A model generated the notes under the pieces. That model was given only the letters and a program-made list of their open reading frames with translations, had not been told where the DNA came from and did no database searches. A program made the translations under genes and the position numbers. A stretch of 63,981 nucleotides of DNA, the filler included, from Sanchytrium tribonematis (taxonomy: Eukaryota), in assembly GCA_018985235.1 (NCBI GenBank). It is 6 parts of 6 records of this genome, joined end to end, with 100 filler letters (N's around TTAATTAATTAA, not from the genome) between each part and the next. Parts side by side here need not be neighbours in the genome. Positions count along the whole stretch, not along the records: positions 11,143 to 22,182 come from JADGIG010000271.1; positions 22,283 to 33,272 come from JADGIG010000272.1; positions 33,373 to 44,360 come from JADGIG010000273.1; positions 44,461 to 55,430 come from JADGIG010000274.1; positions 55,531 to 63,981 come from JADGIG010000377.1; 1 more part is not named here. The stretch is one strand, 5' to 3'. Of this stretch, positions 13,112 to 62,538 are shown in pieces; positions within the stretch are counted from its first letter, which is position 1; the number at the start of each line of letters is the position of its first letter.

Positions 13112-16025
13112 CCCAAATCCCTGTGCATTTTCAATGGCTGTTAAAAGCCTTTCTTTCAATTTTTCTGGTGAATCGTATTCTGGTAACAATAACCTGCCAA
13201 AACATGTCAATGCTGTTGGCAATCGATCCGAGTTTCTTCCGTTTTGTTGCACCACAAATGTTAGCGCGCTGAAGCCCTTAAGTGGGATTCTGTCACTTGC
13301 TGTAACAAAAATCATTAACTTCTTTTTCTCTACATCACTAAAGTCGTGCAATATTTTCCAAAACTCACTAAATTAATGTGGAATACTTGATGTAAGAAGA
13401 TTCGGAGGAGTAACCTTCATATTTGGTCCACTTTTCGAGTTGATCGAAATCTAATGCGACAGCTCCACTTAAAATCTTTTCCAACTCAACTCCACGAAAA
13501 TCCTTTAGAATTTGACCGCAAGTGGACCAAAATCCAAAACTGAAGTAGTCGAACTGCTTTTTTATATTAACGTTGAGCTTGTGGTTTATCAACAATTCAA
13601 CATACTCCTCCTTATTTTCATTGTTTACGGATATTGTAGATCCATCATCGGTCAATTCATAAATGTCTTTTTCCCCATACGAATCATAGGTAATGTCAAA
13701 ATTTAGGCAAAATGTATTCTCAACATTACCTTCAAATTGCTTCAATTCAAATAGACCTCTACCTATTTCTGGAAAAGTGGCACAGAAATCTGCGAAATTC
13801 AAATTTTCTCCTGCCAACTTTTTGAAAAGCGTAGTTGGAAAATGCAAGTCAAGTATTATGCCATTATATGAAGCGAGTCCAATGATCATCCCAAAAACCT
13901 CAAATAGTTCAAAGTCTTGGGAGTCATGTCTAATCCAAGCCATTCTTTCTCTTTCTTCATAATAAAATAGACCACGGTCAACGTCCATAATCTCAGAAAC
14001 AAATGTTAAAAAGAATTCTTTTTGAACTCCGCCTTGGTCAAGTCCTTCTTCACCGTCAGTAAATCTAACTCTCAATGGCTTTTTGCAATTTTTCTCGATG
14101 TACGATTTGTAGTTAACTACATCTTCCAGAATATACTCTCTTCTTATTTCAAGTAGACAATAAGGATTGCTGACTTTGGCAAGTAATTTGTCCAGTTCAT
14201 GCGTAGTGATGGACTCTTGCAGAATTTTTGACGTATGAACCACCATGGCATGATTGACACACGCATCTTCATATTCTTTAGACATAATTGAAAGAGATTG
14301 AATTTGCAAAATGCTTGTTTTTGCTATACAGTTGAAAAGATACAAATGCTTCATAATTGCAGATTTGCCTCTCTTATATAACTTGAATTCTCTCTTGAAA
14401 TCGACTATATTGCTTAAAGAATCGTTATAAAATATTTCCAAATCCATTCCTTCTTTGTACTTACATAAAACATATAAATCATGAACAAAAGTAAGTGCTT
14501 TTTGTTCAGCTGATTTTCCTATAGATTCATTAGAACTATTAGAATATTTGTCATCATCACTGATGTCACCCTTATTTTCTAAAGAAATGGAGTAGTTCTT
14601 GAAGATAAAATAATGACATGCATCAATAACTTTTATAAGATGGGATGGATGCTTCATAATATTTTTCATCAAGAGCTGTTTTTGATCAAATCCTAAGTTG
14701 CTATACGCCTTAAAAAGCTTGTAAGTAAGATTTGTTTCTATTCGAATTTCAGGGTATATTGAAGCAATGTAGCAAATCATCCAGGAAAGCGGATGACGGA
14801 CATAACTTCGAGTTTTCAGCTGAGACAGCAAAAATGAGATACTATCAGCTAAAGTCTGTTGTATCATTGGCTGCCCTACCATATCAGTCAAAATATGATA
14901 GCACCGTAGTAATTCTTCATAATTGAACGCATCGGAATTGGGAGATTTACGGAATGAGTGTAGCATAATTAGAGGATCCCCGAACATGTAGTGTACCGTT
15001 TTTGATAATAAAGTCCGCTCTTGAAGTCCCTCCGGATCTATTTTAGATTTGCTAAATTTTCTAGAGGGAAGCTTTTCCTCTTGTTGCGGAACATCATCGT
15101 AGCTGCTAGATCTTTTTGCCGACTGTTTCCGTGCATATAGTCTTTTAAAAACATTTGGTTCATTATTTACAACCATTGTTTTGCTTAGCGTGTCAACCAT
15201 TTTTTGTAAAATAATTGAGTCAAACTTGACGGGCTTATCTGTGGTAAACTTTCTAATGAATTCTTCAACAGATTCTAAGTTTCTGAATGACATAACTTGC
15301 GCATTTGTACCAGAACTCAATGATCTTCTCCTTGGGTAAGGGTCACTGTTGGTATGTACTTGGCTGGATAAATTTTCTAAGGAATGCCCGTTGGTACTTA
15401 ATTGTGGATGAGAATGATAGGATGCGGATGAACCTGTAGAAAGGGAATAATCACTAGATGATAGATCCTGAGTCAACGACCTATCGCTTTTGTATGAGTA
15501 ATAGGAGTTTTGAGAAGAATACTCACTAGAAAATTGTACAGAATCATTATTATCTGAGTCTGGAGAGGGTATGCGAATTGATGTCGGATTTACGTCAGCC
15601 TGATTTTTTGCTTGGTTTATCTTTTCTAAGAGTCCTTCTGAAAAGTGCGACTTGAGCAAATGATCACTAGGGTTTTTCTTGATCTTGCCAAGTACAGACG
15701 GCATTCTCATTGGAGGTGCTTGCGTGTTCAAGCCCAATTCAAATAATGAAGTGTTTAAGCACGATGATAAAATTTGATCGAGTTTAACTGCTGTTGTATC
15801 TGGTAAAAGTAGAGTTGTAGATAATTCTGGAATGTCCGGTATCTTTTGGGGAAGCCTAGGACATACATATTGTTTACCGACGCGTCCTGCTATAGAATGA
15901 GCTAATACTAAGGCTACGTCTTTTGGAACTTCTGGGAAAGATGCATTGGATCTACAAAATTTAATATCACAATTCGTATGACAACCCTCTACAATCTGGT
16001 AGAAATATTTTTTAATCAAATCCAT
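13103..16025 (-). CDS. HECT E3 ubiquitin ligase, UBE3A/E6AP-like with N-terminal AZUL-like Zn motif; 2 exons, 967 aa
   Basis: KYFYQIVEGC..C...C; GEEGLDQGGVQKEFF; DRLPTALTCF..LLLPEY..GFGLI; frame restored by intron 13368-13386. Confidence 0.93.
13368..13386 (-). other. 19-nt spliceosomal intron
   Basis: gtattccacattaatttag; splicing gives YI-N-EFWKILHDF. Confidence 0.92.
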
Positions 16026-16357
16026 TCAATAAATGGCTTGACTTTTCATTTAAACGTAGCAAAAAATATTTATTTTTCCGAGTCACATTATTAATGCAAA
16101 TTGTCTAACAAGTGCTTGCTTGCATTACCGGAGCTGAAGTAGCATAATAAAACGTGTTTTCAAGTGACCGGTTGTAATTATTCATTGCTTGACTTAAGGA
16201 TTGTCCGAAATTTTTTAGAAATTACCAGTAAATTTGGTATTATTATCTATTAATTATAAGAAGCGAATTTCTGAAAGTCATGTTTGCAATAGTAAAGTGT
16301 TTGTCCAAAACTCCAATTTTCTGAGAAATAGTGGCTTGGTCAGAATTTCTGAGTCTC

Positions 16358-17477
16358 ATGTTATTCAATTTTGTTGCTAGAGCATGTACCAACACGTATT
16401 TTCAGAGTGATTTGACAATTGCAAATGTCACCAATTGGTTTTCTAACAGTAGCACGGAATATTCGATTGATAGCATCACTCCAGCAATTTCCATAGAATC
16501 AACAAGTGATAGACCACATGGTTCACTGCTATATAACTTTAAAAATGCTATTACTATCAATAGTGCTGATGTTTGGATTACATTTGAAGCCAGAATCAAC
16601 GACAATGGAAATAATACCATTCCAAATTTTGATATTGAGTTTCAATTGAAAAACAATGGCAATCCGGTTTCTGTCGCAGCTTCTACTGTAAATTCTTTAG
16701 GATATAGTAATATAACTTATGGAGAATGGAAGAAATTCTATATCAGCTCTGAGGATCTTGGCAGATGGACCTCAATCAGTGGAATCAAATTTAAGAATAT
16801 CGATGTTTCCATCTTATTGATCAAAAATATTATGATTCAATCTGCTGATTGTGAAAGCGGTGATAAAATATTGGTGCTCAGCGACTTCAGACAATCCAAC
16901 TACATTGCTGCTAAGAAGACGTATATTAACACAGACATCATTCCCGGAACATCATACACAATGGGCCCATCAGGAATCTCTTTTAAAAAAGTGACTGCAG
17001 ATGCAACTGATGCTACCGTCAACTTCAGAATTAATCCGCAGTGCAATTTGAAGTATACTGGAATCAGTTTTATTGGTAAATCTAACTTACATAGCATACA
17101 GCGATGAGTCAACTTCCTCATTCAAAGTTGGGTTTGGTTATGCTCAAAGCATCAACCAATGCTTTTTTGGTAGCACGCTAACTTACTCGTTTCCAGATGA
17201 AGATACAATTACAATCACAAGTATTCCGGACACTTACACCATCAATTTTCCAGAAGATATGGCTGGACAAATTCGAAGCAATATTATGGAATTAGTTTTT
17301 AGACAAAGCACGACAAGCAGTATTCATATCTCTCATGTGGTTTTACACACAAGTCAACTTGCAGTTAAAAATTCACCTGCTAAAAATGTCGTCCCAGTCG
17401 GTTCTTTACCAGGTGCAGCAGGAGAACTTTCCAACATTTGTTTCTTATTAGCTGCTTTGTGTATGATTGTACAATAA
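16358..17477 (+). CDS. Secreted, probably GPI-anchored beta-rich protein of unknown function; 2 exons, 366 aa
   Basis: Short hydrophobic N-terminus MLFNFVARA; hydrophobic C-terminus ICFLLAALCMIVQ; ORFs joined by intron 17076-17094. Confidence 0.7.
17076..17094 (+). other. 19-nt spliceosomal intron
   Basis: gtaaatctaacttacatag; splicing gives SFI-A-YSDES. Confidence 0.85.
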
Positions 17478-17498
17478 ATAAAAGAATATTATTAGCAT

Positions 17499-19473
17499 TT
17501 ATTCGGATTTTTCCTTACTTGGTGAGGTGCGATTGTCAATCTGTTCTTTAGCTTTTTCAACTACCATTTTGAAGACATTTTCGGCCATTTGTTGGACAAC
17601 TCCTACCATTCCCATTTGGATTATAACTAGTGCTACTAATCCAGTAAGACTAGCTAAAATTAAGTAAATTGGATTTCCTAAAATAATCCATAACTCGTTC
17701 CATCCTAAAAGAAGCAAAACGCCATAAACCCACTTGGGAACACGCTCATTTGATAAAATTATTCTGCGCTGTTGCTCGACGTAAAATACTTCCAAATCGG
17801 ACTTCAACGTGGACAAATGTGGCTTTGACAGATTCGGCAATTCAACTTTATAATGACTTGGCAATTTTGTGCTGTTGATCTTTTCTATAGTTTCAGTAAT
17901 ACTTTGCCATGTATTATTGAACTGCATACCGAGCTCTGCTTCGTTTGCATATAATCTTGGAATTCCATTTAAAAGATTCATTTTGTCTTTCATGGTTGAT
18001 TTAAGATATTGAAGAACTCGTGTTTCTGTAAAGTACTCTTTGTTCATCGAAAATGTTTTTGACTTGAGGAACTCTACAATTTCTGATTCGTTCAACTTGT
18101 ATTCAAATGGCTCATCCGATTCTATGTTAATATTAGTTACCCAATGTAGTTTTAAATGATGCTAAAGCCTTTTCATATTTTTCTTCAAATGATTTCAAAA
18201 TATCATCACTATTCAAAATGGTTCTCCAATCCATGTCATAAGAGTGCACCAACAAATCATATTGAATTTCATGGCAACATTGTTTAACTGAAAGGTCAAT
18301 ATTGTCTTTCACAGCTTTACATGGAATTGACTTCATCTTGATCCAAGCTGATTCCCATGATTTCAAAATCGAATTAATACTGCTACACATAGCTTTGTAA
18401 TCAGAAGAATCGCAATTCTTAATGATTGAAACAATCCATTTTTTGGCAGAAACAAAATCTAATATACTTTGATGAATTTCATGATGGGTCTTTTCAAATA
18501 TAGGTGCTGTGATTTTACTTGAGATCCTTTCCGTATGTTTGACCATGACATTGACATATTCAGAAATTTTGCCATCCATTTCACTTATCATAGCAAAAGA
18601 ATCCTCTATTTTTCCAGATTTGACCTCGAATGAATGCTCAGACATCCATTTCTTGATACTCTCTAGACATTGGTCTGCGTGCTTTTCTACCCGGTATTTT
18701 GTGATTAGTTCCATTTGTGTTGGAACATTCAATTCTTGGTTCGAAATAATTAATTTCCAAATTCTGGACATGTACTCGTTCAGTGCGTCTGGATGAACGT
18801 GATTGTTATTCTGAATGGACATTATATTGTTTTTCAATGTTGCAACAGATGCACTAAACGCATCTTTTTGTAGCTTAAAATGTGGGCAAGCATGAATGGT
18901 TAATTCGAAATACTTGGAAAGATCTTCAGCGGTCAAAGTTGACCAAATTTTTATAATGTCTTGTGTCAAAATCTCAAGTAGTTCAGAAACTGGAGTGGTG
19001 TCTGAATAGTCACGAACCACAAATAATAAAGTTTTTTTATGAACTTCCTCTGATTTGCTAATAAAAATCTCATGGTAAATTTCTAGGACCATTCTCATTA
19101 ATCCCATATTTGCCCCATGATAGAGACCTACTGCGTTTTCAAATACATTAAAAAGCAAAACATCAGATACGGATAACGCAAACAGCATTAAACATCTTTC
19201 ATGATGTTGCTGGTCACCGTGTTCTCGTCCATCGCTACCTTCAACGTCACAAACAATTACTTGTCTACTGTCAGAATGATACGAAGATGCAACAATTCCT
19301 CTCGTAGTCTGTTGTCGAGAACTTTGCATAACAGAAAAGTTAAGATTAAATAATTCGTTTAGTAAGGTAGACTTACCGCTACTTTGACTTCCGACAATTG
19401 ACAGAAGTGTATATGGCTTGTTCTTGATCTCAGCATTTTTAAAAACTTGATTCTCGTCAATAAGCTGGGACAT
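17499..19473 (-). CDS. SEY1: SEY1/RHD3 ER-fusion dynamin-like GTPase; 2 exons, 651 aa
   Basis: QLIDENQVF, GSQSSGKSTLLN.LF, RQQTTRGI, DVEGSDGREHG, VPKWVYGVLLLLGWNE, two TM segments; intron 18122-18140. Confidence 0.95.
18122..18140 (-). other. 19-nt spliceosomal intron
   Basis: gtaactaatattaacatag; splicing gives TTL-E-SDEPF. Confidence 0.9.
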
Positions 19474-19543
19474 AGACAATAAACTCCGTAGTTTCACAAA
19501 AATATGGCAAATTTTAGTTTATTAGTTTGTGTAACAAATAAAA

Positions 19544-22182
19544 TTAGGTAGACTTGACTTTATATTTAAGCCAGATGTATGATAGCAAAAAGAAGACTCC
19601 AGCAGTAGCCCAAAGTGTTGATATATCTAAAACGTAAGAATTTGGCCTAAATCCAAATCTATCTAATATAAAGTCCGCCGGTACTTTTAGCTTGATATCC
19701 GGATCTTGAATCAGAAGTTGATGCATTTCATTGACCGACATTGCCTCTACTGCATTTCTAAAGAAACTTAGATAGCTGACATATTTGAAAACCGAATCAC
19801 CTAGATAAAAAAAGTCTACGTGTATTAAGAAGCAAGCCACTAAAAAGCATTGATACAAGCATAAGTAGTGAAGTTACCAAAGTGGAAACTGCTAACTCAG
19901 CTATTGCAATTCCTAAAAAGAAACATATGCTTGAACTTGCAATATTGAAAGATATTAGTCCCAAAATAAATTTGAGGTAAATCCAAAGGTCTTTCCTGAG
20001 ACCTACCAGTGGGTACAACACCAAACTGAGCAAAATTGGCGGAACTACTCTTAGCGGTATTACGTCAAACAAGACTTTTGAAATATAGTACATGCTTGGA
20101 TCATAGAACCGATTGCTTCTTTCTTTGATAAATAAAAGTCTTTCAACATTAAGAACGCTCAACGTTGTCAAGCAAGAAAAACCAAAAATGGCGCACAAGA
20201 AAAAGAAACAGCCAAGCCTATTTTGAACTCCTGAAATGTCATTTTCCACTTTAAAATAAACGCATCCCAACAGAATTCCAGCGATTAGGCTGATGAGGTA
20301 ATGTGAAAATAATAAAAGTGGATTTCGATAAAGGTTTTTAAAAGATCTATCACAGAGAATTTTAAGCTGGGTGAGCAAGCTTGGTTTTGCAGAAGTAGTA
20401 AAATGTTGAAAATGAGATGATATGGTTGAGTCGACATCATTCTCGAATTTAAAACCTGTTGTAGCTACAATTTCGGCGGTGATTTCTTTAGACATTATAG
20501 AGTTGTCAAATTGAGCTAATATATCATTAAATTTCTTACTTTTCGGGTTTTCGTCACTTATTATTTCTAAATCTGTGGTCGTTATTAAATCAACCAAATA
20601 GTCTGCAATGTTGTAACCTTTGGGGCAAGTATAGCCTAGATTTTCAAAAAATTGGGCTGCTTTTGAGCGTGGTCCCGAAAAGACGCAAAATCCATCACTC
20701 AGCAATAGAACTTTGTCCAGTTTTCGGAAAATATCGCTTCTTGGCTGATGAATTGTTAAAACAATTGTTCTTTTAAAATCCTTGGCCAACTTTGATAGGC
20801 AAGATATAACATTCATGGCATTATAACTATCCAGACCACTTGTGGGCTCATCTAAAAATAAGATAGAAGGATTTGTAACCAACTCGCACGCAATAGAAAC
20901 TCTCCTTCGTTCTCCTCCAGATATTCCCCTTATACCAGCACCTCCGATTCTGCTATCTGCTATATGCTCAATTCCCAGCTCGTACATTACCTCTTTGACT
21001 CGTCTCAATTTAGTTTCTTTCAGCATATCTCTGGGTAGCCTCAACATCGCACTATAAGTAATAGTTTCCTCCACAGTGAGATAATCCATTAAAAAATCAT
21101 CTTGCTCTACATAGCCAACGATTTCAGCATACGATTCTAAATTCACAGGCTTCCCATCTGCGAATATATAACCATTAACCTCTCCCAGTTTGAATCTATT
21201 TGCTAATATCTCAAGAGTGGTAGTCTTGCCAGCCCCAGAAGGGCCCATTATTGCGCATAATTCTCCTTTTTTGACAGAACCTTTAATTCCTTTTAAAATC
21301 TGCTTCTCTTTGTAAATGTATTCCAAATTACTAAATGCTAAATCGACTCCTTCTGGTATTAAATCCTCGGAACTCAAAGATTCATACCCGCGAAGTCTCT
21401 TTGCTTTGTTTAAACAATACATGAATATTCCCACCATCAAAAATGCCAGAACAACCAAAGGCACTAAGGTAAACCATTTGTTATTCAAATTGGGATCAGC
21501 CCGAACCTCCCATTTGTCGACACATTCCCCAATGGTGCAGTCTAAATCAAATCCAATATCTCCAAACATAGGCCCCATCATCTCCTTTTCTATATGTGGT
21601 TCTGTAAACATGCATTTTTGATCTGTGCATTCTAATGTACCTGGGCCCTTGACATGAGTTTGAAGAAAATCTGTCAAATCTATTAGACCGCCTTTTCCAC
21701 ATAAATCGCGATCTGGTATACACTGACAATTCACGTTTTCGCAAATTATTTTAGAATTTCCCTCTTGATGGCAATTTGAAAGACCGCACCAGAAGCTTTC
21801 CTGTTTACCGTAAAAAAATTCAAAGTGGCAGGCTGTAGACTTGCAAGACCAAACTGCTGTTAAAGGCTCAGGTGCGATTGCAACTAGTCCAGGATTTGTG
21901 ACTTTACAATGCGCAAAGTTCTCACGGACTGGATTTAGGGTCTTATAACATGTTGGCTGTATATATGGGTAAGCACTACATGTATTGTCGTTACTACATA
22001 CCCGACAAGTCAATCCTTCCCACCCCTTATCACAATCCCCTTCCCTTGGTTTTAACGGACTCCCTCCAATTGGATTTGCGCACGTAGGCCCTCCAAATCC
22101 CACTTCACAATCACACTCTCCACTATCTAATAGCGTGGAATTACTGTAGCACACAGTCTCTAAGTCACGCATTATGAGAAAT
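19544..22182 (-). CDS. ADP1: ADP1-like ABCG half-transporter with Cys-rich EGF-like lumenal N-terminus; 2 exons; probably 5'-truncated
   Basis: CDCEVGFGG, CDKGWEG; GPSGAGKTT; ISGGERRRVSIACELV; LDEPTSGLD; TM domain; intron 19801-19819. Confidence 0.9.
19801..19819 (-). other. 19-nt spliceosomal intron
   Basis: gtagactttttttatctag; splicing gives SGLLLNT-R-DSVFKY. Confidence 0.9.
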
Positions 22183-22282: not shown

Positions 22283-23074
22283 AGTGAAGAAATTACCATC
22301 CAATGCACCAGTCCTGCAAAACATCTCTACCACGCTACTTGCATGGCAAATTGGTTTGTGAAGCAGTTTAAGAATCAAATAGATTCAGGATCAAATTTAA
22401 AGATACATACAACACCAAAATGTTATTGCACAAAACCCTATGAGAATCTACAAAATATATTTCAAGAAAAGGATTTAGAATTGCAATCTTTTGTTAAAAA
22501 TCGTGATCAAATCATTGCTAATCATTTAGCACACTTTATTGACGAATTAATCACATTAAAACACGTCATCATACCATATTTTAAAGACATTTATCCCCAT
22601 AAATTATTTAATCGTCATAATTTGATTGAGAAAGCATGGATTCAAGTACTTGGTAGTGCTTCTTTATTGGATTTAAAGGGCGCTATTATCAAAAGAAGTT
22701 GTCAGCCATATCGTGAACCATTATTTGTGCAATTTGGATACATCATTATGCCAAATAAAACCTACAATTTCGAATTTCCTCAAATTTCATTAGAATCAGA
22801 TTCTGATTTAATTCAATTATCAAATCAATTGATTGAAGCAGATTTGAGAGCACTCACTCAACGTGATTTGAAAGTGATTTATGTCAAATATTTCATGTTG
22901 ACCTTAAAATTGCAAGATTTGCAAATAGATTCCTCCATTGCCTCGATGAATGAGATTCAACAACAATTAATGGATAAATTATTTATTAAAAATGATGATC
23001 ATAATGAAAATGCCCTGGAATATCTCAAAATAGGTCGCAAATTTAATATTTTCATTAAATATATTTTATCTTAA
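22283..23074 (+). CDS. 5'-truncated protein with the C-terminal half of a RING-like finger
   Basis: Frame open from the contig edge: QCTSPAKHLYHATCMANWF...PKCYC. Confidence 0.6.
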   Translation, partial: SEEITIQCTSPAKHLYHATCMANWFVKQFKNQIDSGSNLKIHTTPKCYCTKPYENLQNIFQEKDLELQSFVKNRDQIIANHLAHFIDELITLKHVIIPYFKDIYPHKLFNRHNLIEKAWIQVLGSASLLDLKGAIIKRSCQPYREPLFVQFGYIIMPNKTYNFEFPQISLESDSDLIQLSNQLIEADLRALTQRDLKVIYVKYFMLTLKLQDLQIDSSIASMNEIQQQLMDKLFIKNDDHNENALEYLKIGRKFNIFIKYILS

Positions 23075-23511
23075 GAAACTGGCTGTATCTCACCCAATTT
23101 GAACTCTGAAATATGTCCAATTTCAACTATTTTCTTTAATTCCTCTTCTATTCTCTCCCTTGGTCCATTAATATGCAAATAACCATTAATTCCCAATGAT
23201 TCCAATTGCTTTACGATAAATTTATTTTCCAAATACGCTCTTACACTCTTGAAATTTGTACCTTGAAGATCATAAAAATGCATTGGTCCACTTATAATTT
23301 CTCTTTTTGGTGGAGAAATCACTATTTTCCCATGTTGATGTTTCCATAATCCATATAATCCAGCAGATATAGCCAATATACTACCCCATATAGGATAATA
23401 ATGATTATGATAGACATGTAATTCACGTGGATCATATGGATATGGCATAGAATGATGAGGAATAGCAAATAATTGCAAAATCAACATGTTTTGAGGAGTG
23501 TCGTACATCAT
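23071..23511 (-). CDS. Hypothetical small membrane protein
   Basis: 146-aa ORF with one TM segment (IWGSILAISAGLYGLW); start uncertain. Confidence 0.55.
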   Translation of the reverse strand: MMYDTPQNMLILQLFAIPHHSMPYPYDPRELHVYHNHYYPIWGSILAISAGLYGLWKHQHGKIVISPPKREIISGPMHFYDLQGTNFKSVRAYLENKFIVKQLESLGINGYLHINGPRERIEEELKKIVEIGHISEFKLGEIQPVS

Positions 23512-24983
23512 TTATTACTCATTTTAATTGCATGCCCATTATTATTAAATAGATATGCTTCTAATGGATACCCATCATCAAATGTCAAATATATCATTTT
23601 CATCATTTTAAAGAATTGACTATCCATGCTATGAAACACATATGCATTTAAATCCCAAGTAAATATCCCTAAATAGTTGTTGAGTGTATAATATCCTATT
23701 TTCAACCAATTCATCCACTTACTTTCATCTGGTTGCAAATATTCACCCGTGTTAACATCAATGGGTGAATATCCATAAGATGTCTTGCATTTCTCATCTA
23801 CAATGCGTGCAATCTCGTAATTACGTTGCTGATATGTTTGATTCTTTGTGAGTCGATATAAATAGAAATGAGATTCAACCAAATATGACTCAAATCTGAA
23901 ATATGATTTATCTTGTAATCCGATGAATGCAGTGCTTTCAGATGGTCCTAATTTGGTGTGTGAGGATTGGTATAGATGCCAACACCCATCAGCCAATTCA
24001 ATGGCATATTGTAAATCTTGATGAAGTGCAAAAATGGATGCAAATTGACATGAAGTATGTTCTAAAATACCTCTTTCTAGTTTATTATTGACTTGTACAT
24101 CACTTGCAATATACGTATAACCATCATAATACCGAGTTAATTGAGATTTAATGGCATTTAATGAGATATTGGCATAATTCAAGAGAGATTTGTCATTTGT
24201 GTAAATACCTGTTTTTAATAAATATTGGTAAAATGAGTCTAATCCACTGCCTGCTGCATAGGCATCATGATAATATAACTCGCCTTGATTGCTAATTGTG
24301 GATGGAAATAGACCTGGATGCTCTAAATCAGATTTTAAAATATAGCCATAAATGGATAATGCCTTGTTTAAATACGTTGCATTTTGAGTTAAATGGGATA
24401 AATGGGCCATTTCTAATTGACGAGTACCTACAAATGACAATGACATGTAAAATAATTGAGAATGTGATTTGGTGTTGAAATCAAATGTGCGGAATGGCAT
24501 TTTATCATGATTTGATAAATGATTTGCAATATAAATGGCTTTATTTAAATAAATTTGATTCTGAGTAGCATCGTACATGGATAAACAACTTGCTAATACC
24601 TTGTTGATGAATTCAAATGTGTTGATATTTGCATGAAAATCATGATTTAATATTGCTTCATTTGCCATTTTATAATAGGGACTATTGAGTATGTACAGTG
24701 TATCAATGGCATCATATAAAGTTAATAGTGTTGATGGACTACCATATGACCAATTAATCCCATTACCATGTTGTGGATCCAAGAAATCAGATGGAAATGC
24801 AAATTGGAAATAATTGGAAATGGCATGATTTGTCATATTTTGGATAAAATATTTGATATTTACAGTATCTGATAGTGGTAAATGATAGAAATGAGTGAAA
24901 TCAGGGATATCGGGAGGAGTTTGAGGGTAATTGTAAATGGCAATTGAAATGGCAATGATTGCGAGTGAAATGGCATAAAACAT
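23508..24983 (-). CDS. GH47 alpha-1,2-mannosidase-like type II membrane protein, divergent
   Basis: N-terminal anchor; TLYDAIDTLY, INTFE, GTRQLEM.HLS.LT, DSFYQYLLK, VESHFYLYRLT. Confidence 0.85.
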   Translation of the reverse strand: MFYAISLAIIAISIAIYNYPQTPPDIPDFTHFYHLPLSDTVNIKYFIQNMTNHAISNYFQFAFPSDFLDPQHGNGINWSYGSPSTLLTLYDAIDTLYILNSPYYKMANEAILNHDFHANINTFEFINKVLASCLSMYDATQNQIYLNKAIYIANHLSNHDKMPFRTFDFNTKSHSQLFYMSLSFVGTRQLEMAHLSHLTQNATYLNKALSIYGYILKSDLEHPGLFPSTISNQGELYYHDAYAAGSGLDSFYQYLLKTGIYTNDKSLLNYANISLNAIKSQLTRYYDGYTYIASDVQVNNKLERGILEHTSCQFASIFALHQDLQYAIELADGCWHLYQSSHTKLGPSESTAFIGLQDKSYFRFESYLVESHFYLYRLTKNQTYQQRNYEIARIVDEKCKTSYGYSPIDVNTGEYLQPDESKWMNWLKIGYYTLNNYLGIFTWDLNAYVFHSMDSQFFKMMKMIYLTFDDGYPLEAYLFNNNGHAIKMSNK

Positions 24984-40049: not shown

Positions 40050-40449
40050 CTAGTAGTTAACACTGATCAAGTAATCTGCCAATTTTTCAACAACAGATGT
40101 GGCTTCACCAGGCTGTACATTTTCATCATATGTACCGATCAATACAGCTTGTTTGGTTTTAACACAAACGACTCCACCGCTTCCCTGAGTAAATAATTTA
40201 TACCAATTTTCCGTAAACTGAACGGTCATCACATCTCAAAGCAATGTATTTCTTTCCGCTAATATATAATCCACCAGCACGGATTCCAGATGCATCTTTA
40301 AAGGCACCATATAATTTTTCCAATTCTTGTGGACTTACGTTAAATCCACCTGATGCAGCCCATGTTGATTTATCATGCCCAAAGATACCTGCGGCATTGA
40401 TTTTCTTTGTTCCAACCAAGTTTTGATCAACGTAAGATTGCCAGCTCAT
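40050..40449 (-). CDS. PFY1: Profilin; 2 exons, 126 aa
   Basis: [43 protein letters not shown]. Confidence 0.97.
40185..40203 (-). other. 19-nt spliceosomal intron
   Basis: gtataaattatttactcag; restores a normal-length profilin. Confidence 0.95.
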
Positions 40450-47433: not shown

Positions 47434-47547
47434 TTTAAAAAAGTGGCTGATTTTGTTTCTTTTTTCAATATTGTTACACGATAATTGAAGCGTCTTCGCC
47501 TATGCTAGAGCATTTTTGTTAAATTTACATCTTTTATTTGCACTGTT

Positions 47548-48033
47548 TCAAACACCACTGAATTGCACGCTGTTCGTCGCTTTGTGAAGAATCAGCGATT
47601 TTTCTAAGAGTTCTCGGCTTGCTTGGGGAAATAATATATGAAGCCTGTCTAGCTTTTTATTGGCCACTTTTTCCACTCTTCTAGTAGGTAAAGGTTCACT
47701 AGTTTTAATAAATCTTCTCGTCATTTTTTTTATCAAAGGCAAATTGCAGAATCGGTTTTTTAAAATAGAGACTTTTGAGCATGGTTGACTCGTATTATAA
47801 AATCCGGGTGTAGGCCTGGAATGACAAAATTGGGAAATGTCTGTTTTACTATCAAAATAAACACTTCTATATTCAGACTGGTGGGTATAAGCAGATGCTA
47901 ATGATCGTGAATCTACTGGAACTTTTCTGAATCCACCAGTGTTCATTGAGTACTTAGAATCTAATTTAGAGAAATTCGAATTTGACATTTGAAACGTTGG
48001 CCTTGAAATATAATCATATCTATTTCCCCACAT
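47548..48033 (-). CDS. Hypothetical protein with a CUE-like C-terminus (possible 1-nt frameshift)
   Basis: LDRLHILFPQASRELLEKSL; the shifted frame continues DEQRAIQWCLKQCK* to 47534. Confidence 0.55.
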   Translation of the reverse strand: MWGNRYDYISRPTFQMSNSNFSKLDSKYSMNTGGFRKVPVDSRSLASAYTHQSEYRSVYFDSKTDISQFCHSRPTPGFYNTSQPCSKVSILKNRFCNLPLIKKMTRRFIKTSEPLPTRRVEKVANKKLDRLHILFPQASRELLEKSLILHKATNSVQFSGV

Positions 48034-48112
48034 TCAATGAAAAACGATAATAAACTCCAATCCTAAGGCCTTCTAAATGCATTGATTGTAAATTAAAATA
48101 AAAAGCCACTCG

Positions 48113-49193
48113 ATGGGTTCTTGTCAAAGTTCTGTTGGACATGAGGGTTATATTTTATCGAATAAAATTGACAAGGAACTCCGAATGGAGGAGAAAAGTA
48201 TCAAAGATAGAAACCCGGTGAAACTGTTATTATTGGGTGCAGGTGAAAGTGGAAAATCGACAATTGTGAAGCAAATGAAAATTATTCATATGGGTGGATT
48301 TTCCAAGAGTGAAAGAGATGGCTACAAATCTCTGATTCATTCAAATATTGTACAAATTGTGAAAAGTGTGAAAAACGCATCAGAATCATTGCACCAAGAA
48401 TTATCGCCTACAAACAAAATATTTGTAGATCGTTTTTTGAAAGAATACATGTCCAATCTTGAGGACAATATTATGATAGAACAAAGTTACTACGAACACT
48501 TAAATGATTTCTGGGACGATAAAGTTGTCAAAGAATTAATTAAGACTGAAAACTATTTTCCTGATAGTTCACAATAGTATTTTGAATTAACACAGTTATA
48601 TGTCTAATCTTAGGAGAATATTTCAACCTGATTACCTTCCAGATGATACTGACATTATCAAGTGTCGCATTAAGTCTATAGGTGTCACTGAGACTAAATT
48701 TGATCTTCCTCCATTACACATTCAATTGTTTGATGCTGGAGGACAGAGAAGTGAAAGAAGAAAATGGATACATTGTTTTGAAACTGTCAATTGTGTCTTA
48801 TTTGTTGCAGCATTGAGTGAATACAATCAAGTTTTATTAGAGGATCCAGAAGTCAGCAGACTTCAAGAAAGTTTAAATTTATTTGACAGCATCATAAATT
48901 CGAGATGGTTTTCAAGAAGTAGTATTATTTTTTTCATGAATAAGTCAGATATCTTCAAAGAAAAACTCAAGGTATTTCTTCTAAAAAAACAATTTCCGGA
49001 TTTTGAATATGGCACTGACTCAGCAAAGGCTGGGAAATATCTTCTTTCCAAATTTGTAGCATTGAATAGGCAAAAGCTTCGAATATATCCTCACTTCACA
49101 AATGCAACAGACACATCACAAATTAAAGTAGTCTTTCTTGCTGTTAAAGACACTCTTTTACAGTCGACTTTAAAGGGAAACGGTATTTTTTAA
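48113..49193 (+). CDS. Second G-protein alpha subunit (paralog); 2 exons, 353 aa
   Basis: [40 protein letters not shown]; intron 48577-48595. Confidence 0.96.
48577..48595 (+). other. 19-nt spliceosomal intron
   Basis: gtattttgaattaacacag; splicing gives DSSQ-Y-YMSNLRRI. Confidence 0.95.
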
Positions 49194-49227: not shown

Positions 49228-51082
49228 TTAAGGTTCAAAAATAAGATTGACATTCTCTACAATACACTCCACCACTCGACAAATATGCATTAGATCTTCC
49301 TTTTCTACTCGGACGAGACTGGGGCCCACTCTCAAAGCCAAACAAAAGGCACTTAATTTCTTTTTCTCAGTAATTCTACGTTATTATGACATACTTGTAT
49401 AAATTTTGCATTAAAAGCTTGAGAGCACAATAATTTGCATCAGGAAGCTTATTTACACAGTCGTGGATCCCAATAACTCTTCTTCGATTGTCGTCACATT
49501 TGACAGAACCAATAAATTCATGGACCATATAATTAGGTATTAAACCGTCAGGAAGTTCTCTAAAAAATAGCAATATCAGTTCGCAGATGATAGGCATTGT
49601 AATCGCATTGACATCTACAGATGGAGCATGTTTGTTTAATTGGTTTCTGAGAGGTATAATTTTGTCAAGAGACTCATTTGAATTGTAAATGTCTACTCTT
49701 TCAGAATATCTATTTAAGCTATTGATAAGACTTTCTAAAACCCTGGGTGTATTTGAGTCGTCCTTTTCACAAAGAGATTGAAGATCCACGCCAAAATTTC
49801 CAAAAATAAGATCTGATGCATTCTCTGTCATCAAACGACTATCAGACTTAAATGGTTTTGTAGCAACATTCATTTCTTGGACGTGCTCGAGATAAACCTT
49901 TTCATTATTATTGTAAGAGAATCGAATGAAGTCCGCTAGATCTTTTTCGAGATTAAATCTCTGAACCACTTCCAAAAAAGTAGTAGTAAGAAAACCATCT
50001 TCGTCAATCTCCGCTTCGTGAGGAGTAAGACTGTAGCTGTTTTCTCTATGTAATACCATCCTCTCGAAATTTTCATCCAGATCGTGTAAGTCGGAGGGTT
50101 CATTTTCGTAAGAGCCAAGCAGCAGACGTCGTTGGTCATTTTCAGCTTTCATCGACTTCCAATATACACCAAAGGCCCACTTATATCGGTCACTTAATTC
50201 CTTACTAAGTTCAATCATAGAATGTAGCAACTTTGGAAGATGAATTCTATAGTGGTTTTGATGGAATGATATCAATACGGCAATCTGCTTTTGATATTTA
50301 ATTGACTTGTCCCCTGTCTTCACAGAGTACTTAGATTCAAGACCTTGTAGACTTTCCAAAGACGTCTTGCTTCCCAGAATGTTGAAAGCAGATTTTCTTT
50401 TGTTGACGACGGGCTTTGAAAGATCTAAAATAAATTGAACTCTATTTTCAATGCTCTCCTCCCATTTCTGTGTGTAAACATGCAAGTCTTTCTTGAAACC
50501 CTCAAGAATTTTCTCTTGTTCTTTCTTTGACTTTTGCAAATCTTCTAAAGAACTTTTCATTCTCTTTCGACTATTTTCATGTCCATCTACAATTCCCTTA
50601 ATGTCTTGCGACAAAGATTCTAAAGATTGTCCTAAAAGTACTTGGAGATTGCCACTTTCCAGTTGAATCCTCTCCAATACGCTTAGCTTCGAGGTAGTTT
50701 CTAGAATTGCGTCATTGGGTACAACCCTTGCGTCAACGCTCCTCTTGAATTGCGAAAACGCGTTCGAATTGCTCTTTCCTGAGCTTTTCAAAAGCTGTCC
50801 CTTTTTCTTCAGGTAGTCACTAAGTTCTAGAAGTTGAAAAACTTGATACTTGATATATTCAATCATATAATCTGGTCCTTCTTTTAAATCACAGAGCAAA
50901 TTGACTAAATTGTGTTCATCAGAGCTATGAGTTTGGTAAGTTGGTTGAGACTGCCACTTCTCTGAAATTTTATCAGAGGCCCTACTTCCTTCGGGACTAC
51001 TAACCTTAGATATCTCACTTTTAATGTCAGGCTGTCTTAATAATGTAGCATAGCCAAGTTTTGGAATCGATTCTAGATTCAT
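49228..51082 (-). CDS. F-BAR-like coiled coil plus RhoGAP protein (Rgd1-like); 2 exons, 611 aa
   Basis: FGVDLQ, LFFRELPDGLIP, LPDANYCALKLLM; short last exon (..VGPSLVR..NVNLIFEP*) after intron 49376-49394. Confidence 0.85.
49376..49394 (-). other. 19-nt spliceosomal intron
   Basis: gtatgtcataataacgtag; splicing completes the RhoGAP domain. Confidence 0.88.
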
Positions 51083-51252: not shown

Positions 51253-52038
51253 ATGTTGAATCTTTTTCGAACGGTAGTATTGGTTAGTTTAGCTAGCTTT
51301 TTATATTACTACTATGGTACAAAAGAATCAGATCTAGAACGTAGAGCTGCAAACAATTTCATTTCACAATGTAGCTTGCCAAATTTAGTAGCTTTGACAG
51401 TATTTAAAGCTGGACCGCACCTTGATGCTTGGTTAGCTGCATTGGCAATTCAAAATGTTAAGATCACGTTCATGTTAGACAGGGCCACTTTATCAAATGT
51501 TGCATTGGTCCAGCGTATTGTTAACGAAGGACATAATGTCGGAATTGATGCTTTCAATGAGCCTTTGACCACTAGTAACATTGTTGCAACTTTGAAAGAA
51601 TTGGGTAATATCGTGGGTCCTACCATTAAAAAAATCCCCCGATTTTACACTTTGAATCAGCCAAATGCAGAGGAACTTGCGGGAGTTGCATTGCAGTCTG
51701 CATTCTATGCGGTTAATGTAAATACAGAGTTTTTGAAGACCGGTAACTTAATTACTCAAGTTGCTGGAATTCAATTGTCTGGAACTCAAACAATTTTAGG
51801 AATGGTGGATAGTGCTGAATCACAGATTGATACAACAGCATTTGCAACCTTTTTGCAAACATTGGTAAACTCCAAAAACAACCTCGTCTCTTTGGCTGAT
51901 TGTACTCAGAAATCTTCTGCATATGACTTATGGTGGAGCACTGGTCAAAGTTCTTCAGCTTCTACTAGCACTGATGGAAATAATGCTAAAGTCAATCAAA
52001 AAAGTAGCAGTGGTATGCTGAAATGGTTTTTATGGTGA
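51253..52038 (+). CDS. Degenerate polysaccharide-deacetylase (CE4/NodB)-like surface protein 1
   Basis: N-terminal anchor; ISQCSLPNLVALT, NVKITFM, VQRIVNEGHNVG, LVSLADC. Confidence 0.7.
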   Translation: MLNLFRTVVLVSLASFLYYYYGTKESDLERRAANNFISQCSLPNLVALTVFKAGPHLDAWLAALAIQNVKITFMLDRATLSNVALVQRIVNEGHNVGIDAFNEPLTTSNIVATLKELGNIVGPTIKKIPRFYTLNQPNAEELAGVALQSAFYAVNVNTEFLKTGNLITQVAGIQLSGTQTILGMVDSAESQIDTTAFATFLQTLVNSKNNLVSLADCTQKSSAYDLWWSTGQSSSASTSTDGNNAKVNQKSSSGMLKWFLW

Positions 52039-52057
52039 GTAAATTTTTTATTTAATT

Positions 52058-52958
52058 TTACAATAAATTAGCCACAATTAAGTACAATAAAAAAGCAGAT
52101 GAGACTTCACCACTACTACCAGAGGGTCCCTGGTTCTGCGGCGCATTGATTGAATTGGTATAAGGAACATCGCCGAGACACTCGCTTAAGGAAACAACAG
52201 AATATTTGTAAGGATCAGATTTTAAAAATTGAATATAAGCCAATATATCAAGCCTTGTAATTAACGTTTGGTCCATATGAGTATGTGCCCAAATGTATTT
52301 TAGTCTATTTCCACCTTGTACGAAAGGATCGATCGTAGTTTTATATGTGCCATATATTTCAGCTGCGGACTGAGTCAAATCTTGCAAGTAAACTTGAGCT
52401 TTAATAGGAACAAAGCCCATGTCCATAGCCCATTTTGCTGTATTTGTTTCGACAGTCCAGTCCGATCCGTATCTAAATAAGTAAAAGCTACTTGAAAAAC
52501 ACGAATTTGGGATATTTGCCTCCCAGGTACACCTTGACAGACTCCGCAAATCCGATCAATTGAGCCTTGAATGTAGACTCGTCCATGTATTTCATATCTG
52601 CTGGATATAGTGGAACTGCTAATCCCACTTCCATACCATCTAAAAGCAACCCATCGATTTGGCCCTTCAAGTCAGGCCGGCTATCTACCGTGACAGGATT
52701 GACGAAGAAGGCACATTTAATTCCTTGAGCAAGACAAGCTTTTCTAAACTCATATGTCTTATTAAATCCCGGTCCATCTGTAAAGACTACACTCATTTTT
52801 GAAATGGTGTTACACTCTCTTCTATAATAATAATTTGTTCCGGCTTGTTTTCTTTGAGGGGATTTTCTAACTAACTCATTTTCTCCACCAAATCCAAACC
52901 CATAGTATAAAACTATTGCTACTATAACAAGGACTGTAGTTCTAAAGATATTCAACAT
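52058..52958 (-). CDS. Degenerate CE4/NodB-like GPI-type protein 2; 2 exons, 293 aa
   Basis: VVFTDGPG, IKCAFFVN, GKYPKFV, VVSLSECLGD, hydrophobic C-terminus; intron 52473-52491. Confidence 0.75.
52473..52491 (-). other. 19-nt spliceosomal intron
   Basis: gtagcttttacttatttag; splicing gives KFVFF-K-YGSDW. Confidence 0.88.
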
Positions 52959-53028: not shown

Positions 53029-53981
53029 TTATTGCAGAATGGCCAGCAATAATACCAAGATAAGATTTGCAACCCCAATTTGAACTTGGGAAGCAATGGA
53101 ACCATAATTTGTATTTTTGCTGCTATAGTCTTGGTTCGTACCGTCAATGCTATCACATGTGGTTGGCATGTTAAAAAATCCAGGTGATTTTGATAAGCCC
53201 AAAGGAATTATGTTGGCTAAATTATTATATAATTACTGGATTTTAGGGAGCTTTCTCCTGCTAAACCAACACAATTATTTATCTGAGTCACAGAATATCC
53301 TTTGGCTTCTGCTGATGCAATCGCTTGGGAAACAACCCCGACATCGACTGCATTTGTTTCTGAATCTTCAATGCTAAAAATGTATCCGTTACCATCTTCT
53401 AAAGACTGAGCCATAACATCCACATCTGACAATTTTTGAATGTCACCATTTCCTTTGGTGTTTTGAATAACCACGAAACCCATGTCATTTGCAATTTTTA
53501 CCATTGGAGATATATCAATGAGGCAGTTGCTTTTACTGATATTTGGGATTCTGATATATTTAGGCCATTGCCCAGCAAAGTTCATCGCCACTGAAATTTT
53601 GTCAGCATATTGACCCAGATACGTCGCAAAGTCATTCGCACTCATCGCTGCCAAGTCCTCTGGCCACAGTGGAACTTCAATACCAACAATTTGATTTTGT
53701 GAAAAAGCGTTGGAGATAATTGCTTTGTTTAGCTCATTTAAATTGTTAGGATTCACCATCAGAGTTGCTTTTTTGTTTTTAAGTTGAAAAACCGTCAACA
53801 AATCAGTAGTTTTGATGGAGGGTGACCAAGTCATCATGAATCCAATTTGTTTTTTAGCAATGCATTTGTTAAAGATTTTCAAGGCTTGTTTCTTGATTTT
53901 TGGTGTTTCCACTGAGTTGGGAATGCTAGAAAGATATACCATTATCAATATCAAAGTTAAAGATTTAAAACTATCAAACAT
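53029..53981 (-). CDS. Degenerate CE4/NodB-like GPI-type protein 3; 2 exons, 310 aa
   Basis: KATLMVN, WPKYIRIP, KGYSVTQINNCVG; spliced last exon ends ANLILVLLLAILQ*. Confidence 0.7.
53217..53236 (-). other. 20-nt spliceosomal intron (only non-19-nt case found)
   Basis: gtaattatataataatttag; splicing adds an open last exon with a GPI-like hydrophobic end. Confidence 0.75.
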
Positions 53982-58208: not shown

Positions 58209-58280
58209 CTCCGAAACGGGGAATCGAACCCCGGTTTCCTGCGTGACAGGCAGGTGTACTGGCCACTATACTATTTCGGA
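58209..58280 (-). tRNA. tRNA-Asp(GTC), intronless
   Basis: Acceptor stem TCCGAAA/TTTCGGA + G73; anticodon arm CCTGC-CTGTCAC-GCAGG; T-loop GGTTCGATTCC; downstream oligo-T Pol III terminator. Confidence 0.97.
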
Positions 58281-59639: not shown

Positions 59640-62538
59640 TTACTTTGTTTTAGGTTCTAGAATTATAGAACGTTTATACATTTGCTCAATGTCACCGGAG
59701 TATTTTAAATTGTCTAATGAAAAAAATATAAGTTCAGTAATTTCAGGTTGAGGCTTAAAATCGTATCGGTGTTGAAAACGTTGCAATTCTTGAATTATAG
59801 AAGAGATCCTAAAATATTTTGTATAGTTTATAATAGTTTTCTCTTTATCTTTGAAATCTGGATTCCCATCTTTTGAAAATGTAAGGTCAGTCAAAAATAA
59901 TCCCAGGAAGGGAAGAAATGGCGGAATTGCATTTTTCATTTCTTTTCTATATTCTCCAAAATTCTTTTTATGATCTGTGACCTCTTCTAGTACTTCAAAT
60001 GATTGCAGGTGCTTATTTTGAATAATATTCCAAGTCTTTCTAAGTCTATGGATTGTCGAGGAATTGAGAGCTGATAAAATAGACATTAGGCCGTTATAAT
60101 TTTTAAACTCTTGCAATTTTGCCGCGCACTTTATCCAAAACTTTAAAATTGTTGCTCTCTTTTTGACATCTTCTTCTTCAAGTATAGTTTCGGCAACTAG
60201 AGAGGCAAGCTATATTAATATACATTACGTTTGTACTAAATTTTGTCATCGCAGATACTTTCTCATTTTTGTCTTTGGAAAATACATAAGAAATCAAATC
60301 CTCTGGTTTCAATCTCGAAAACATATCAATTTCAATCAATGTGATTTGCTTAGCAACATCGGTGTAGTCTGTTTGTGCAATATTCCCGTACTTGGAAATT
60401 TTGCTTGACTTGTGGCTCTTTGTTGTGGAAGAAGAAGGAACGGATAATTTAATTTGTAAATCGCGTTCTTTTTGCTTCTTTATTACATCAATAATGCGAA
60501 TTGCCATACTAGGCATAGCTGGACGAATAATAAGATTTGAAAAGCTTTCAATTTGGGAGAAATATAACTCGTCTTCTACATAAAAGTATCCTTCCATCCA
60601 GGTTTTTAAAATATTGAAGACTCTGAGTCTAACAGGAATAAGTTTTTTATCAGTCCAAAGTTTGATTTCATCCACTTGTAAATCCGTCGGTTCGCTTAAA
60701 TTGAACCTTTGCTCTAATAACTTTAAAAATATGGTTTGACTTGTAAATAGTCTAAAAGTTTGTAAAAAGGATGTTATATATAACGGGTCAATGGTCATGT
60801 CATGTAGAGTCAATCTTTCGATCAAAGCTTCCAAAGTTCCACCGCTAACTTGTCCATCTAAATTTAAGATTAAATCTTTTGATGAATAATCATAAGTCAG
60901 ATATGCTAGATTTCTGCGAATACTATTTCTGCTTCTTGAAATATTTTTGTTTAATAACCGGGCTGAGTTTTCTGAGGCCCTCAAAGCTAGATTCTCGTGA
61001 TCTTTGTTATATTCGACTCTCGAAGCACTTGAGCGAGTTTTTAAAGATTGATCCGCATTATCGGCTATGTCATTTAAATCTTGAGAAACAGACTTAACTA
61101 AAGGATTTGGAGACTCGGATTCATCTGTTTTAGCAATCACGGGCACATATGTCAAGCTCATAGCTCGTCTCTGCAATACAAGCAAGTCGGAATCTCTTTT
61201 AGGATCGGATATAATTTGGATTTCTTGCTCAAGAATTTGCTGTTCGTAATCTTCTTTCTTATCGATCAAAATCTTGGTAGATGTGACCAAATTTTCACTT
61301 GCTCTCATTAAATTAGAGCTGCATTTTTGCAATAATTGTTGGGAATTTGCCGGGGCGAAAGAGTCTAAAAGGGTACTAGTATTACTGACAAGGTCGTTAA
61401 CTTTTTCGTATAGCACCTCTCGTTTTTCCTTAAAATCATCTACCAGTGCGGTCATTTCCTTATTTCTTATATTGCCAAGTTTTAACTCGTCAATCAAGCT
61501 AAATATCTGTCCCACTTCAAAAACAATATCTTTTGAGATAGAAATGATTTTTTCTTTGTTAGTCTGATCTTGAAACAAAATTGAAATCATTTCAGTCGCT
61601 GTAGTCAAAACATTATTAGAAAAAGAATCCAGCCTTTTTACAAAATCAAAATCACTCATTGGAATCTTATTACTTTCATCGTCTTCAGGCTCCTCTTCTG
61701 CAAAACCTTCCAAGGTGAGTTTATTTTCTTGTGCAGCAGAAACAAAATGTCTCACCGACAGCAAAACCTGTCCGGCTTGATATCTCATCTTTGTAGTAGA
61801 CTTCGGCTGTGGGTATATCCCAGAAGCTACTTTTGCAGCCAAAACTAGTTTAGCTGTTGCACTAAGTAGCTGTGAATGTGTAGTTCTAAGACTTGAGTGC
61901 TGTTTTAACATCAATGAATTTTTTGATAAACAATTAGAGGCGATCAGCATTTCTCTGATTCCCTTGATCACATCTGTTGTGGAGACTAAGAATTTAGATT
62001 TTTCTTCCGTTTTTGCTGCAGAATTCAAGTCTGATATACCTTTGAATATTCTATTAATCAATATATCCCAGGTTGGTTGGATTTTTCCTATTTTTAGGTT
62101 TTCATCGATTTTCTCATCTACGGTGTTTAGGTTTCGTAATTCCTCAAAATCGGTAGAAGAAGCTTTCAGAAGTAACATAGACTGGCGTGGATTCTTTGGA
62201 ATTTCTTCTTTTGAATTAACAGTTTGGTATGTGGATAAATTAAAATAATAACTATTACCATCCTTGGCTATTTTTTGTTTCCACCCAGCGGGTATGTCAT
62301 GAGAAGCTGGCGAGGTTGGCGGTGTATGCTCAATTGCTTTCGTAAAATTGCTAGGAAACCACCCTCTTTTACCTTTGTTAGGGCCGCTGCTTATAACTCC
62401 ATCGTGCCAACCACTCTCATCCTTATTAATTACGTAAATGATATCACCAGCTTCCAAAGATATACAAGTCTCATCCTCGGCTTCATAATCGTAAAGGGCT
62501 TTTACAATATCTACCTCATGATCTTTTTCATTTGACAT
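59640..62538 (-). CDS. CDC25-like Ras GEF with SH3, WW, REM and RasGEF domains; 2 exons, 959 aa
   Basis: ALYDY..GWFPSNF; PAGW..YYFN; GGTLEALIERLT; RLRKTW, PFLGLFLTDL; intron 60210-60228. Confidence 0.93.
60210..60228 (-). other. 19-nt spliceosomal intron
   Basis: gtaatgtatattaatatag; splicing gives KFSTN-LASLVAETIL. Confidence 0.92.

Follow-up and report, generated by a model that had tools for sequence, protein, structure and literature searches.

In a window of 63,981 nucleotides (nt) from the sanchytrid Sanchytrium tribonematis, a small fungus that parasitizes algae (assembly GCA_018985235.1), which joins six pieces of this genome with N spacers between them (five of about 11 kb each, the last cut at 8.5 kb), protein-coding genes are interrupted by 15 GT..AG segments, 14 of them 19 nt long and one 20 nt long (53217–53236). 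Judging from the sequence, these segments are almost certainly real introns (Table 1). They are spread over five of the pieces (4, 1, 3, 6, and 1) and are present in 15 of 38 gene models, which together hold 45,042 nt of coding sequence (CDS) within 11143–63981 (0.33 introns per kb). An earlier note on this DNA had listed 15 GT-AG introns of these lengths on five contigs, and all coordinates were verified. We consider it probable (roughly 0.85) that they are introns of the major spliceosome, with a GTA donor, a degenerate TACTAAC-type motif, and a terminal AG, that have shrunk to about the minimum size the spliceosome accepts. They are likely the shortest spliceosomal introns so far seen in fungi.

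All 15 segments have boundaries of the U2 type, that is, GT..AG on the coding strand with the encoded protein restored on removal. Splicing in silico connects an open frame of 52 to 879 codons to a second one of 44 to 323 codons in each case, which agrees with the earlier claim of frame restoration. If retained, nine of the 15 would give an in-frame stop inside the intron, again as claimed, and the remaining six meet a stop 7 to 22 codons on. Pfam domains run through the break in the HECT, SERCA, profilin, chitin synthase, and RasGEF genes and in both G-alpha genes. Among homologs spanning the junction, the alignment is gapless in 111/111 for SERCA (119 hits), 127/132 for HECT (149 hits), 114/114 for IDH1 (119 hits), and 120/120 for chitin synthase (121 hits); compared residue by residue, the junction is colinear with homologs in six genes, namely these four, one G-alpha gene, and profilin. 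Profilin is split into 82 and 44 codons; residue 81 of exon 1 corresponds to residue 80 of PDB chain 1f2k_A and exon 2 begins at chain residue 82, which leaves exactly one residue for the last codon of exon 1. Each intron is also top-ranked among the 4 to 51 frame-restoring GT..AG pairs at its own break when scored with a matrix trained on the other 14.

The same evidence bears on two explanations that need no splicing. Programmed +1 ribosomal frameshifting or read-through, as known from Euplotes, would leave the segments in the mRNA; a 19-nt skip does amount to a +1 change of frame, and nine of the 15 segments contain a stop. However, homologs lack the six additional residues that this would place at the junction, the 20-nt case would need another shift, there would be no role for GTA, branch motif, and AG, and at one of the sites distant fungi have an intron as well, all of which makes it very improbable. 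Still harder to credit is an origin in artefact or decay (assembly errors, amplification chimeras, or pseudogenes), which is already largely excluded. The data come perhaps from one amplified sample, and the DNA contigs of run X1, which bridge eight of the ten introns in the two stretches compared and cover the other two with no indel at any, are not independent: X1 is possibly the source of the window itself, so this match speaks only against assembly error. Nevertheless, artefact or decay fits poorly with the common motif, with deep DNA contigs free of indels, with breaks in essential conserved genes, and with identical breaks in Amoeboradix gromovi and other relatives. The SERCA break at 37210 is common to P0123 (Amoeboradix), P0122, P0126, and four distant fungal or rozellid proteins, and the Amoeboradix HECT ortholog P0362 breaks at the site identical to 13368 with an identical 6-residue tail.

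All 15 introns start with GTA. With positions numbered back from the 3' end, every one of them also has T at –8, A at –6, and a pyrimidine at –5; A occurs at –10 in 13/15 and T at –11 in 12/15. When the interiors of the 14 19-nt introns were shuffled 20,000 times, no shuffle matched their three invariant interior columns, and only 12 reached even one. Positions –11 to –5 fit TACTAAC at 5 to 7 of 7 places in every intron when C-to-T (a G-U wobble) is allowed, the branch motif being TA[T]TNAY, and the layout consists of 8 nt of donor region, the 7-nt branch motif, 2 nt, and AG, with an interior that is 86% A+T. The putative branch A therefore lies in a motif that is predicted to be able to pair with GUAGUA of the U2 small nuclear RNA (snRNA). 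The 20-nt intron at 53217 retains the 3' register of the motif, so its extra base sits between donor and motif. Donor-to-branch spacing is 13 to 14 nt in the window and appears to be 16 nt in one relative, whereas branch-to-AG spacing is strictly fixed. The earlier description of the intron anatomy was right about the GT-AG ends but overlooked this fixed branch-point motif; the introns are not signal-poor. Two other intron classes were considered and rejected. U12-type introns carry an extended RTATCCTT donor and a TCCTTAAC branch, whereas donor positions +4 to +9 here are variable and A/T-rich and the branch motif differs. Ire1-type HAC1/XBP1 introns measure about 19 to 29 nt, have non-GT-AG ends inside paired stem-loops, and occur in one target gene; the GT..AG ends, the A+T-rich interior, and the 15 different host genes do not agree with this.

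In the mechanism that we propose, U2 snRNA would pair with the branch motif through G-U wobbles, and the A at –6 would attack the donor, producing a lariat with a loop of 14 nt and a tail of 5 nt. The acceptor would be picked by its fixed distance from the branch point, there being no space for a polypyrimidine tract. The length floor would be set by the donor-to-branch distance (13 nt) and would have been reached because the compact genome of a parasite is under pressure to lose DNA by deletion; introns a little above the floor (20 and 22 nt) would be tolerated, and 18 nt is probably under the floor. Lengths divisible by three are probably selected against, since an intron that shifts the frame would, if retained, be caught by nonsense-mediated decay; for most ciliates, the available part of one study describes selection against multiple-of-three introns tied to that pathway (PMC13685798). 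A strict ruler, by which the spliceosome would measure off about 19 bases starting at the donor, with a secondary role for the branch motif, seems unlikely. It would account for the one length in 14/15, for the lack of 18- or 21-nt introns, and for the 19 nt deduced in Amoeboradix too, but the 20-nt intron and the probable 20- and 22-nt introns of relatives vary 5' of the branch motif and keep the 3' register. Since variation occurs only 5' of the motif, the branch-to-AG distance is the fixed one, and given the variable donor-to-branch spacing, a floor combined with shrinkage accounts for the length no less well than a true ruler does. Of the near fixed-length, ruler-like splicing proposed in the earlier note, the near-fixed length and the independence from ciliates and nucleomorphs stand, whereas strict fixation holds for the branch-to-AG segment only.

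Table 1. Predicted introns in the window (positions along the whole stretch)
Position	Strand	Length (nt)	Phase	Gene	CDS	Evidence
13368–13386	–	19	2	HECT E3 ligase (AZUL + HECT)	13106–16025	Frame, Pfam, homolog junction
17076–17094	+	19	1	No Pfam family	16358–17474	Frame restoration and motif only
18122–18140	–	19	1	Sey1/RHD3 GTPase	17502–19473	Frame, motif
19801–19819	–	19	1	ABC-2 type (ABCG-like) transporter	19547–22172	Frame, motif
28595–28613	+	19	2	Family 2 glycosyltransferase	26766–29211	Frame, motif
37210–37228	–	19	0	SERCA-type Ca2+ ATPase	36820–39754	Frame, Pfam, homolog junction
40185–40203	–	19	0	Profilin	40053–40449	Frame, Pfam, PDB 1f2k_A alignment
42155–42173	+	19	1	NAD-dependent IDH1	42037–43141	Frame, homolog junction
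45301–45319	+	19	0	Chitin synthase (Chitin_synth_2 + DEK_C; 5' part lost at piece edge)		Frame, Pfam, homolog junction
46948–46966	–	19	2	G-alpha	46353–47433	Exons colinear with solved G(i)/G(o) alpha chains
48577–48595	+	19	2	Second G-alpha	48113–49190	Frame, Pfam, paralog's site
49376–49394	–	19	2	RhoGAP	49231–51082	Frame, motif
52473–52491	–	19	2	No Pfam family	52061–52958	Frame restoration and motif only
53217–53236	–	20	1	No Pfam family	53032–53981	Frame, motif
60210–60228	–	19	0	SH3-RasGEF (Cdc25-like)	59643–62538	Frame, Pfam RasGEF continuing over break

Motif scores differ among the individual introns. The IDH1 intron has the lowest of all (2.3 bits) and ends in AAG, and the ABC-2 intron is also low (2.8 bits, leave-one-out), while the glycosyltransferase intron at 28595 scores 11.2 bits versus 5.5 for a nested 16-nt GTT..AG alternative. 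In RasGEF, the 19-nt intron scores 7.4 bits versus 7.0 for a 49-nt alternative with the same AG, and the junction is inexact, with local alignments to PDB 7nzz_A off by 3 residues. A 47-nt X1 contig of depth 6 (19791–19836), overlapping the ABC-2 intron with its 7-base homopolymer, shows one gap, which is probably an error and possibly a rare 20-nt allele. X1 also contains two alleles at similar depth at 16069–16359 (20 differences in 291 nt) and at 52400–52701, which suggests a heterozygous or mixed sample. The two G-alpha paralogs, which share one intron site, are divergent neighbours at 46353–49190 with one small gene between them, and in each of them the unspliced junction itself creates a TAG stop.

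With 15/15 introns at 19 to 20 nt, the window has the narrow distribution (a range of 1 to 4 nt below about 22 nt) of a near fixed-length tiny-intron system. A motif scan of both strands of 11143–63981 gave 17 hits at 19 nt, 2 at 18, 4 at 20, and 2 at 21, with 0 to 8 hits at each other length from 12 to 60 nt; the scan is circular for the 19-nt count and informative for the remaining lengths. Hidden 18- and 21-nt introns, which had been raised as a possibility beforehand, were looked for among GT..AG candidates in the CDS, and none of the 138 of 18 nt or the 123 of 21 nt reached the lowest leave-one-out score of a real intron. Likewise, no insertion of at least 3 residues relative to homologs was found in SERCA, IDH1, chitin synthase, or the covered 539 of 967 HECT residues. 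Five in-frame candidates whose length is a multiple of three scored above threshold, at 12192 (15 nt), 21331 (24 nt), 22503 (27 nt), 56731 (36 nt), and 55628 (45 nt). They were rejected as chance, because the 10 frame-breaking false hits of other lengths predict about that many; the candidate at 21331 directly precedes the ABC domain, in a stretch resembling a conserved ABCG motif. Additional 19-nt motif hits at 40053 and 51815 lie on the strand opposite to genes and were rejected, and another at 54082 on the minus strand lies within a gene's 3' end, below threshold.

Near-fixed lengths of 19 to 20 nt are likely to hold genome-wide. It is rather improbable that the 19- to 20-nt class is real but partial, with many longer introns elsewhere in the genome. 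The small sample, intergenic stretches of up to 1.7 kb that remain unexplained, and the close-scoring 49-nt alternative at 60210 would fit such a mixture, but the 38 gene models require no other intron, the five pieces agree, and relatives show probable introns of 19 to 22 nt at five further sites or genomes.

The best named match of the window is Amoeboradix gromovi (87% identity for IDH1, 68% for SERCA, and 48% for HECT). In a SERCA tree, the window groups with Amoeboradix and two ENA proteins on a long branch, the position expected of Sanchytriomycota, with support of 100 in the SH-like approximate likelihood-ratio test (SH-aLRT); the tree is a quick, single-gene search with 21 chosen rows, and the placement rests on SERCA together with the best matches. 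Contamination from a ciliate or a nucleomorph was rejected on the standard code, the fungal chitin synthase, and the tree with Amoeboradix. Searching metagenomes with IDH1 exon 2 gave 80 loci, none above 46% identity and none from a sanchytrid. As had been predicted for gene finders, existing annotation misses these introns: EukProt P0001, P0121, and P0361, which are the window's own proteins and differ from the Amoeboradix ones, translate through them.

Unspliced proteins of this kind, whose tail translates the intron, allowed intron lengths in relatives to be estimated with a likelihood model, with or without the branch matrix. The Amoeboradix SERCA tail favours 19 nt (0.85 without the matrix, 0.998 with it), as does its HECT tail (0.07 and 0.91) and the SERCA tail of ENA P0126 (0.39 and 0.93), whereas the SERCA tail of ENA P0122 favours 22 nt (0.32 and 0.97). 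Simulated long-intron tails attained the three SERCA scores in 0, 0, and 0 to 1 of 250 cases. As a control at the SERCA site, the ascomycete-like P0212 gave 58 nt, and a tiny intron was unsupported in P0173 and P0236. ENA chitin synthase P0241 (79% identical) is without the window's intron and has its own further 3', estimated at 20 nt with a posterior of 1.0 using no branch matrix and only non-sanchytrid homologs; its tail residues are compatible only with A at both –10 and –6 and with a pyrimidine at –5. The tails therefore appear to imply introns of 19, 20, and 22 nt with the same motif, a length that is narrow but not absolute. Another ENA chitin synthase, P0328, ends five residues past the motif in which the window's intron lies, one codon further on, which may reflect a tiny intron that has slid or a separate one. 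The SERCA intron is ancestral and has shrunk, since the break falls at an identical residue in Paramicrosporidium-clade and ascomycete-like proteins. The IDH1 intron is missing in Amoeboradix P0002 and ENA P0003, which points to ongoing intron loss or gain. Spliceosomal components are on record for the sister genus Amoeboradix, for which a supplement lists Prp8, Brr2, Prp4, U5-40K, the U2AF small subunit, and Snu13 in the part available to us (PMC8371127).

Several points weigh against the proposed reading. Splicing and branch use are predictions from DNA, the evidence for seven of the 15 junctions is frame and motif alone, and no snRNA, including U2 and U6, was found in the window. Without the branch matrix, the three SERCA length calls stand at 0.32 to 0.85 when the window is in the profile and drop to 0.03 to 0.19 when it is not, and the tail method is conservative on short tails, giving the window's own HECT intron only 0.12. 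The length sample consists of 15 introns in 53 kb of gene-dense DNA, which is also the whole base of the genome-wide scope given to the 19- to 20-nt lengths beforehand; from this small sample, the lower 95% bound is 68% for 19 nt (14/15) and, taken one-sided, 82% for 19 to 20 nt. Detection could fail for longer introns that use another signal and for introns located in untranslated regions.

The number and position of introns per gene show a further pattern. None of the 38 gene models has two introns (P = 0.015 if 15 introns scatter by length), and all eight models of at least 1.8 kb carry exactly one (P of about 0.0003, for a threshold picked post hoc). Across the 14 complete genes, introns lie on average at relative position 0.68 (P of about 0.01), with 11/14 in the 3' half (sign test, 0.057), and the stop codon lies 132 to 968 nt downstream of the intron in all 15; the two G-alpha genes are not independent in these placement statistics. 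Chitin synthase has one intron each in the window and in P0241, at different sites. As a caveat to the one-per-gene pattern, Amoeboradix IDH1 has none. In addition, P0257 (labelled S. tribonematis; 94% identical to Amoeboradix P0511) begins at partner residue 1029 and ends early, which may represent two breaks in one gene or a contig edge; a double break would weigh against a strict one-per-gene rule. We therefore treat the one-per-gene, 3'-biased placement as a lead and not as a result. A tentative extension, which we hold to be possible but doubtful, is that no spliceosome of fungi or animals works on smaller introns than that of sanchytrids, which retain exactly one 19- to 22-nt intron near the 3' end of each longer gene, since one splicing event would be needed to license the mRNA (for export, 3' processing, or surveillance), and that the ancestral intron retained can differ between species.

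Tiny introns are known from several unrelated lineages, for which we draw on the available portions of the cited papers. The precedents named in the earlier note, ciliates and nucleomorphs, were apt, but the list left out Mikrocytos (16 to 17 nt), myxozoans (median 22 nt), and microsporidia (about 25 nt). The introns of the ciliate Stentor coeruleus resemble those of the window in being AU-rich, with a GUA start, a fixed branch A with a 5-nt tail, a near single length, and mostly one intron per gene; however, they are 15 to 16 nt long with a lariat loop of 10 to 11 nt (19 to 20 nt and probably 14 to 15 nt in the window), have a weak branch consensus in place of the 7-nt TACTAAC-like motif, and combine a modal length that is a multiple of three with a 5' bias, whereas the window shows neither and has a 3' bias (PMC9505925). 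Mikrocytos mackini is likewise a reduced parasite with introns of conserved sequence and of a uniform length that is not a multiple of three, but it is a rhizarian with 224 introns of 16 to 17 nt in a 49.7-Mb genome and none in metabolic or transporter genes, whereas introns occur in 15 of the 38 models here, including IDH1 and transporters (PMC10245619). Introns of the Bigelowiella natans nucleomorph overlap in range (18 to 21 nt) and also occupy positions inherited from ancestors; unlike those of the window, they have no discernible branch point, number 3.1 per gene, include lengths of 18 and 21 nt, and belong to an endosymbiont's remnant nucleus (PMC6009652).

Closer to fungi, microsporidia and rozellids are holomycotan parasites with short GT-AG introns, and the branch motif of Encephalitozoon is clear; E. 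cuniculi introns are nevertheless about 25 nt and two Rozella introns about 30 nt, and microsporidian introns are few, 5'-biased, and poorly spliced, in a lineage separate from sanchytrids (PMC6349667, PMC2483917). Yarrowia lipolytica shares the order of branch motif, two bases, and AG with equal 3' spacing but has long introns (median, 204 nt) and a strict ACTAAC (PMC2483917). Myxozoans and dicyemids, which are opisthokont parasites with a donor cut down to GTa, have median lengths of 22 to 27 nt, and their putative branch A lies farther from the AG in longer introns, whereas that of the window stays at –6 (PMC13644364). Mean intron lengths in fungi are given as 63 to 469 nt (PMC8476143).

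The window has a GC content of 35.0% overall, and the published value for S. tribonematis is 34.64% (PMC8371127). Its first piece (1–11042) holds decayed long terminal repeat (LTR) retroelement and other repeat remnants, including integrase core and zinc-binding domains at 1451–2230 (Pfam), and 8582–8669 is repeated near 10955–11042; the remaining five pieces are gene-dense. Compaction is extreme, with start and stop codons that abut or overlap and gene spacers of 22 to 25 nt (23071–23514, 62598–62602, 17478–17501, 19522–19546, and 52039–52060). Adjoining frames at 23510 were rejected as an intron-split gene; they are two genes, and the GH47 domain finishes in the first. The convergent genes at 51253–52035 and 52061–52958, both without a Pfam family, have similar N-termini and are probably paralogs, with an intron in only one. 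In the frame at 35518–36393, 60 open codons precede the first ATG, and no motif-matching intron connects it to any upstream exon. A single tRNA-Asp(GTC) gene lies at 58209–58280 on the minus strand.

A literature search covering sanchytrid introns as well as tiny or shortest introns in general turned up no report on this phylum among the accessible papers, subscription papers being mostly outside reach. In the available part of the sanchytrid genome paper, proteins were predicted with TransDecoder, and introns appear in the main text only in one reference title (PMC8371127); in that of a second paper, they appear only in a reference (PMC10459994). The placement of the sanchytrid introns, one per gene and 3'-biased, opposes the 5' bias described for Stentor and yeast (PMC9505925) and for E. 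cuniculi (PMC6349667) in the portions of those papers available. As public sanchytrid proteins were called without splicing, gene-loss counts for the phylum may be inflated, and short split genes such as profilin are predicted to drop out of unspliced annotation. The introns described here would represent a separate origin, within true Fungi, of introns close to the minimal size, and they are shorter than the values that the cited papers give for microsporidia (about 25 nt) and myxozoans (median, 22 nt). Because their branch motif is readable, unlike that of nucleomorph introns, the geometry becomes explicit, with 13 nt from donor to branch A and a 5-nt tail, and the smallest lariat possible for a fungal-type spliceosome would become directly testable.

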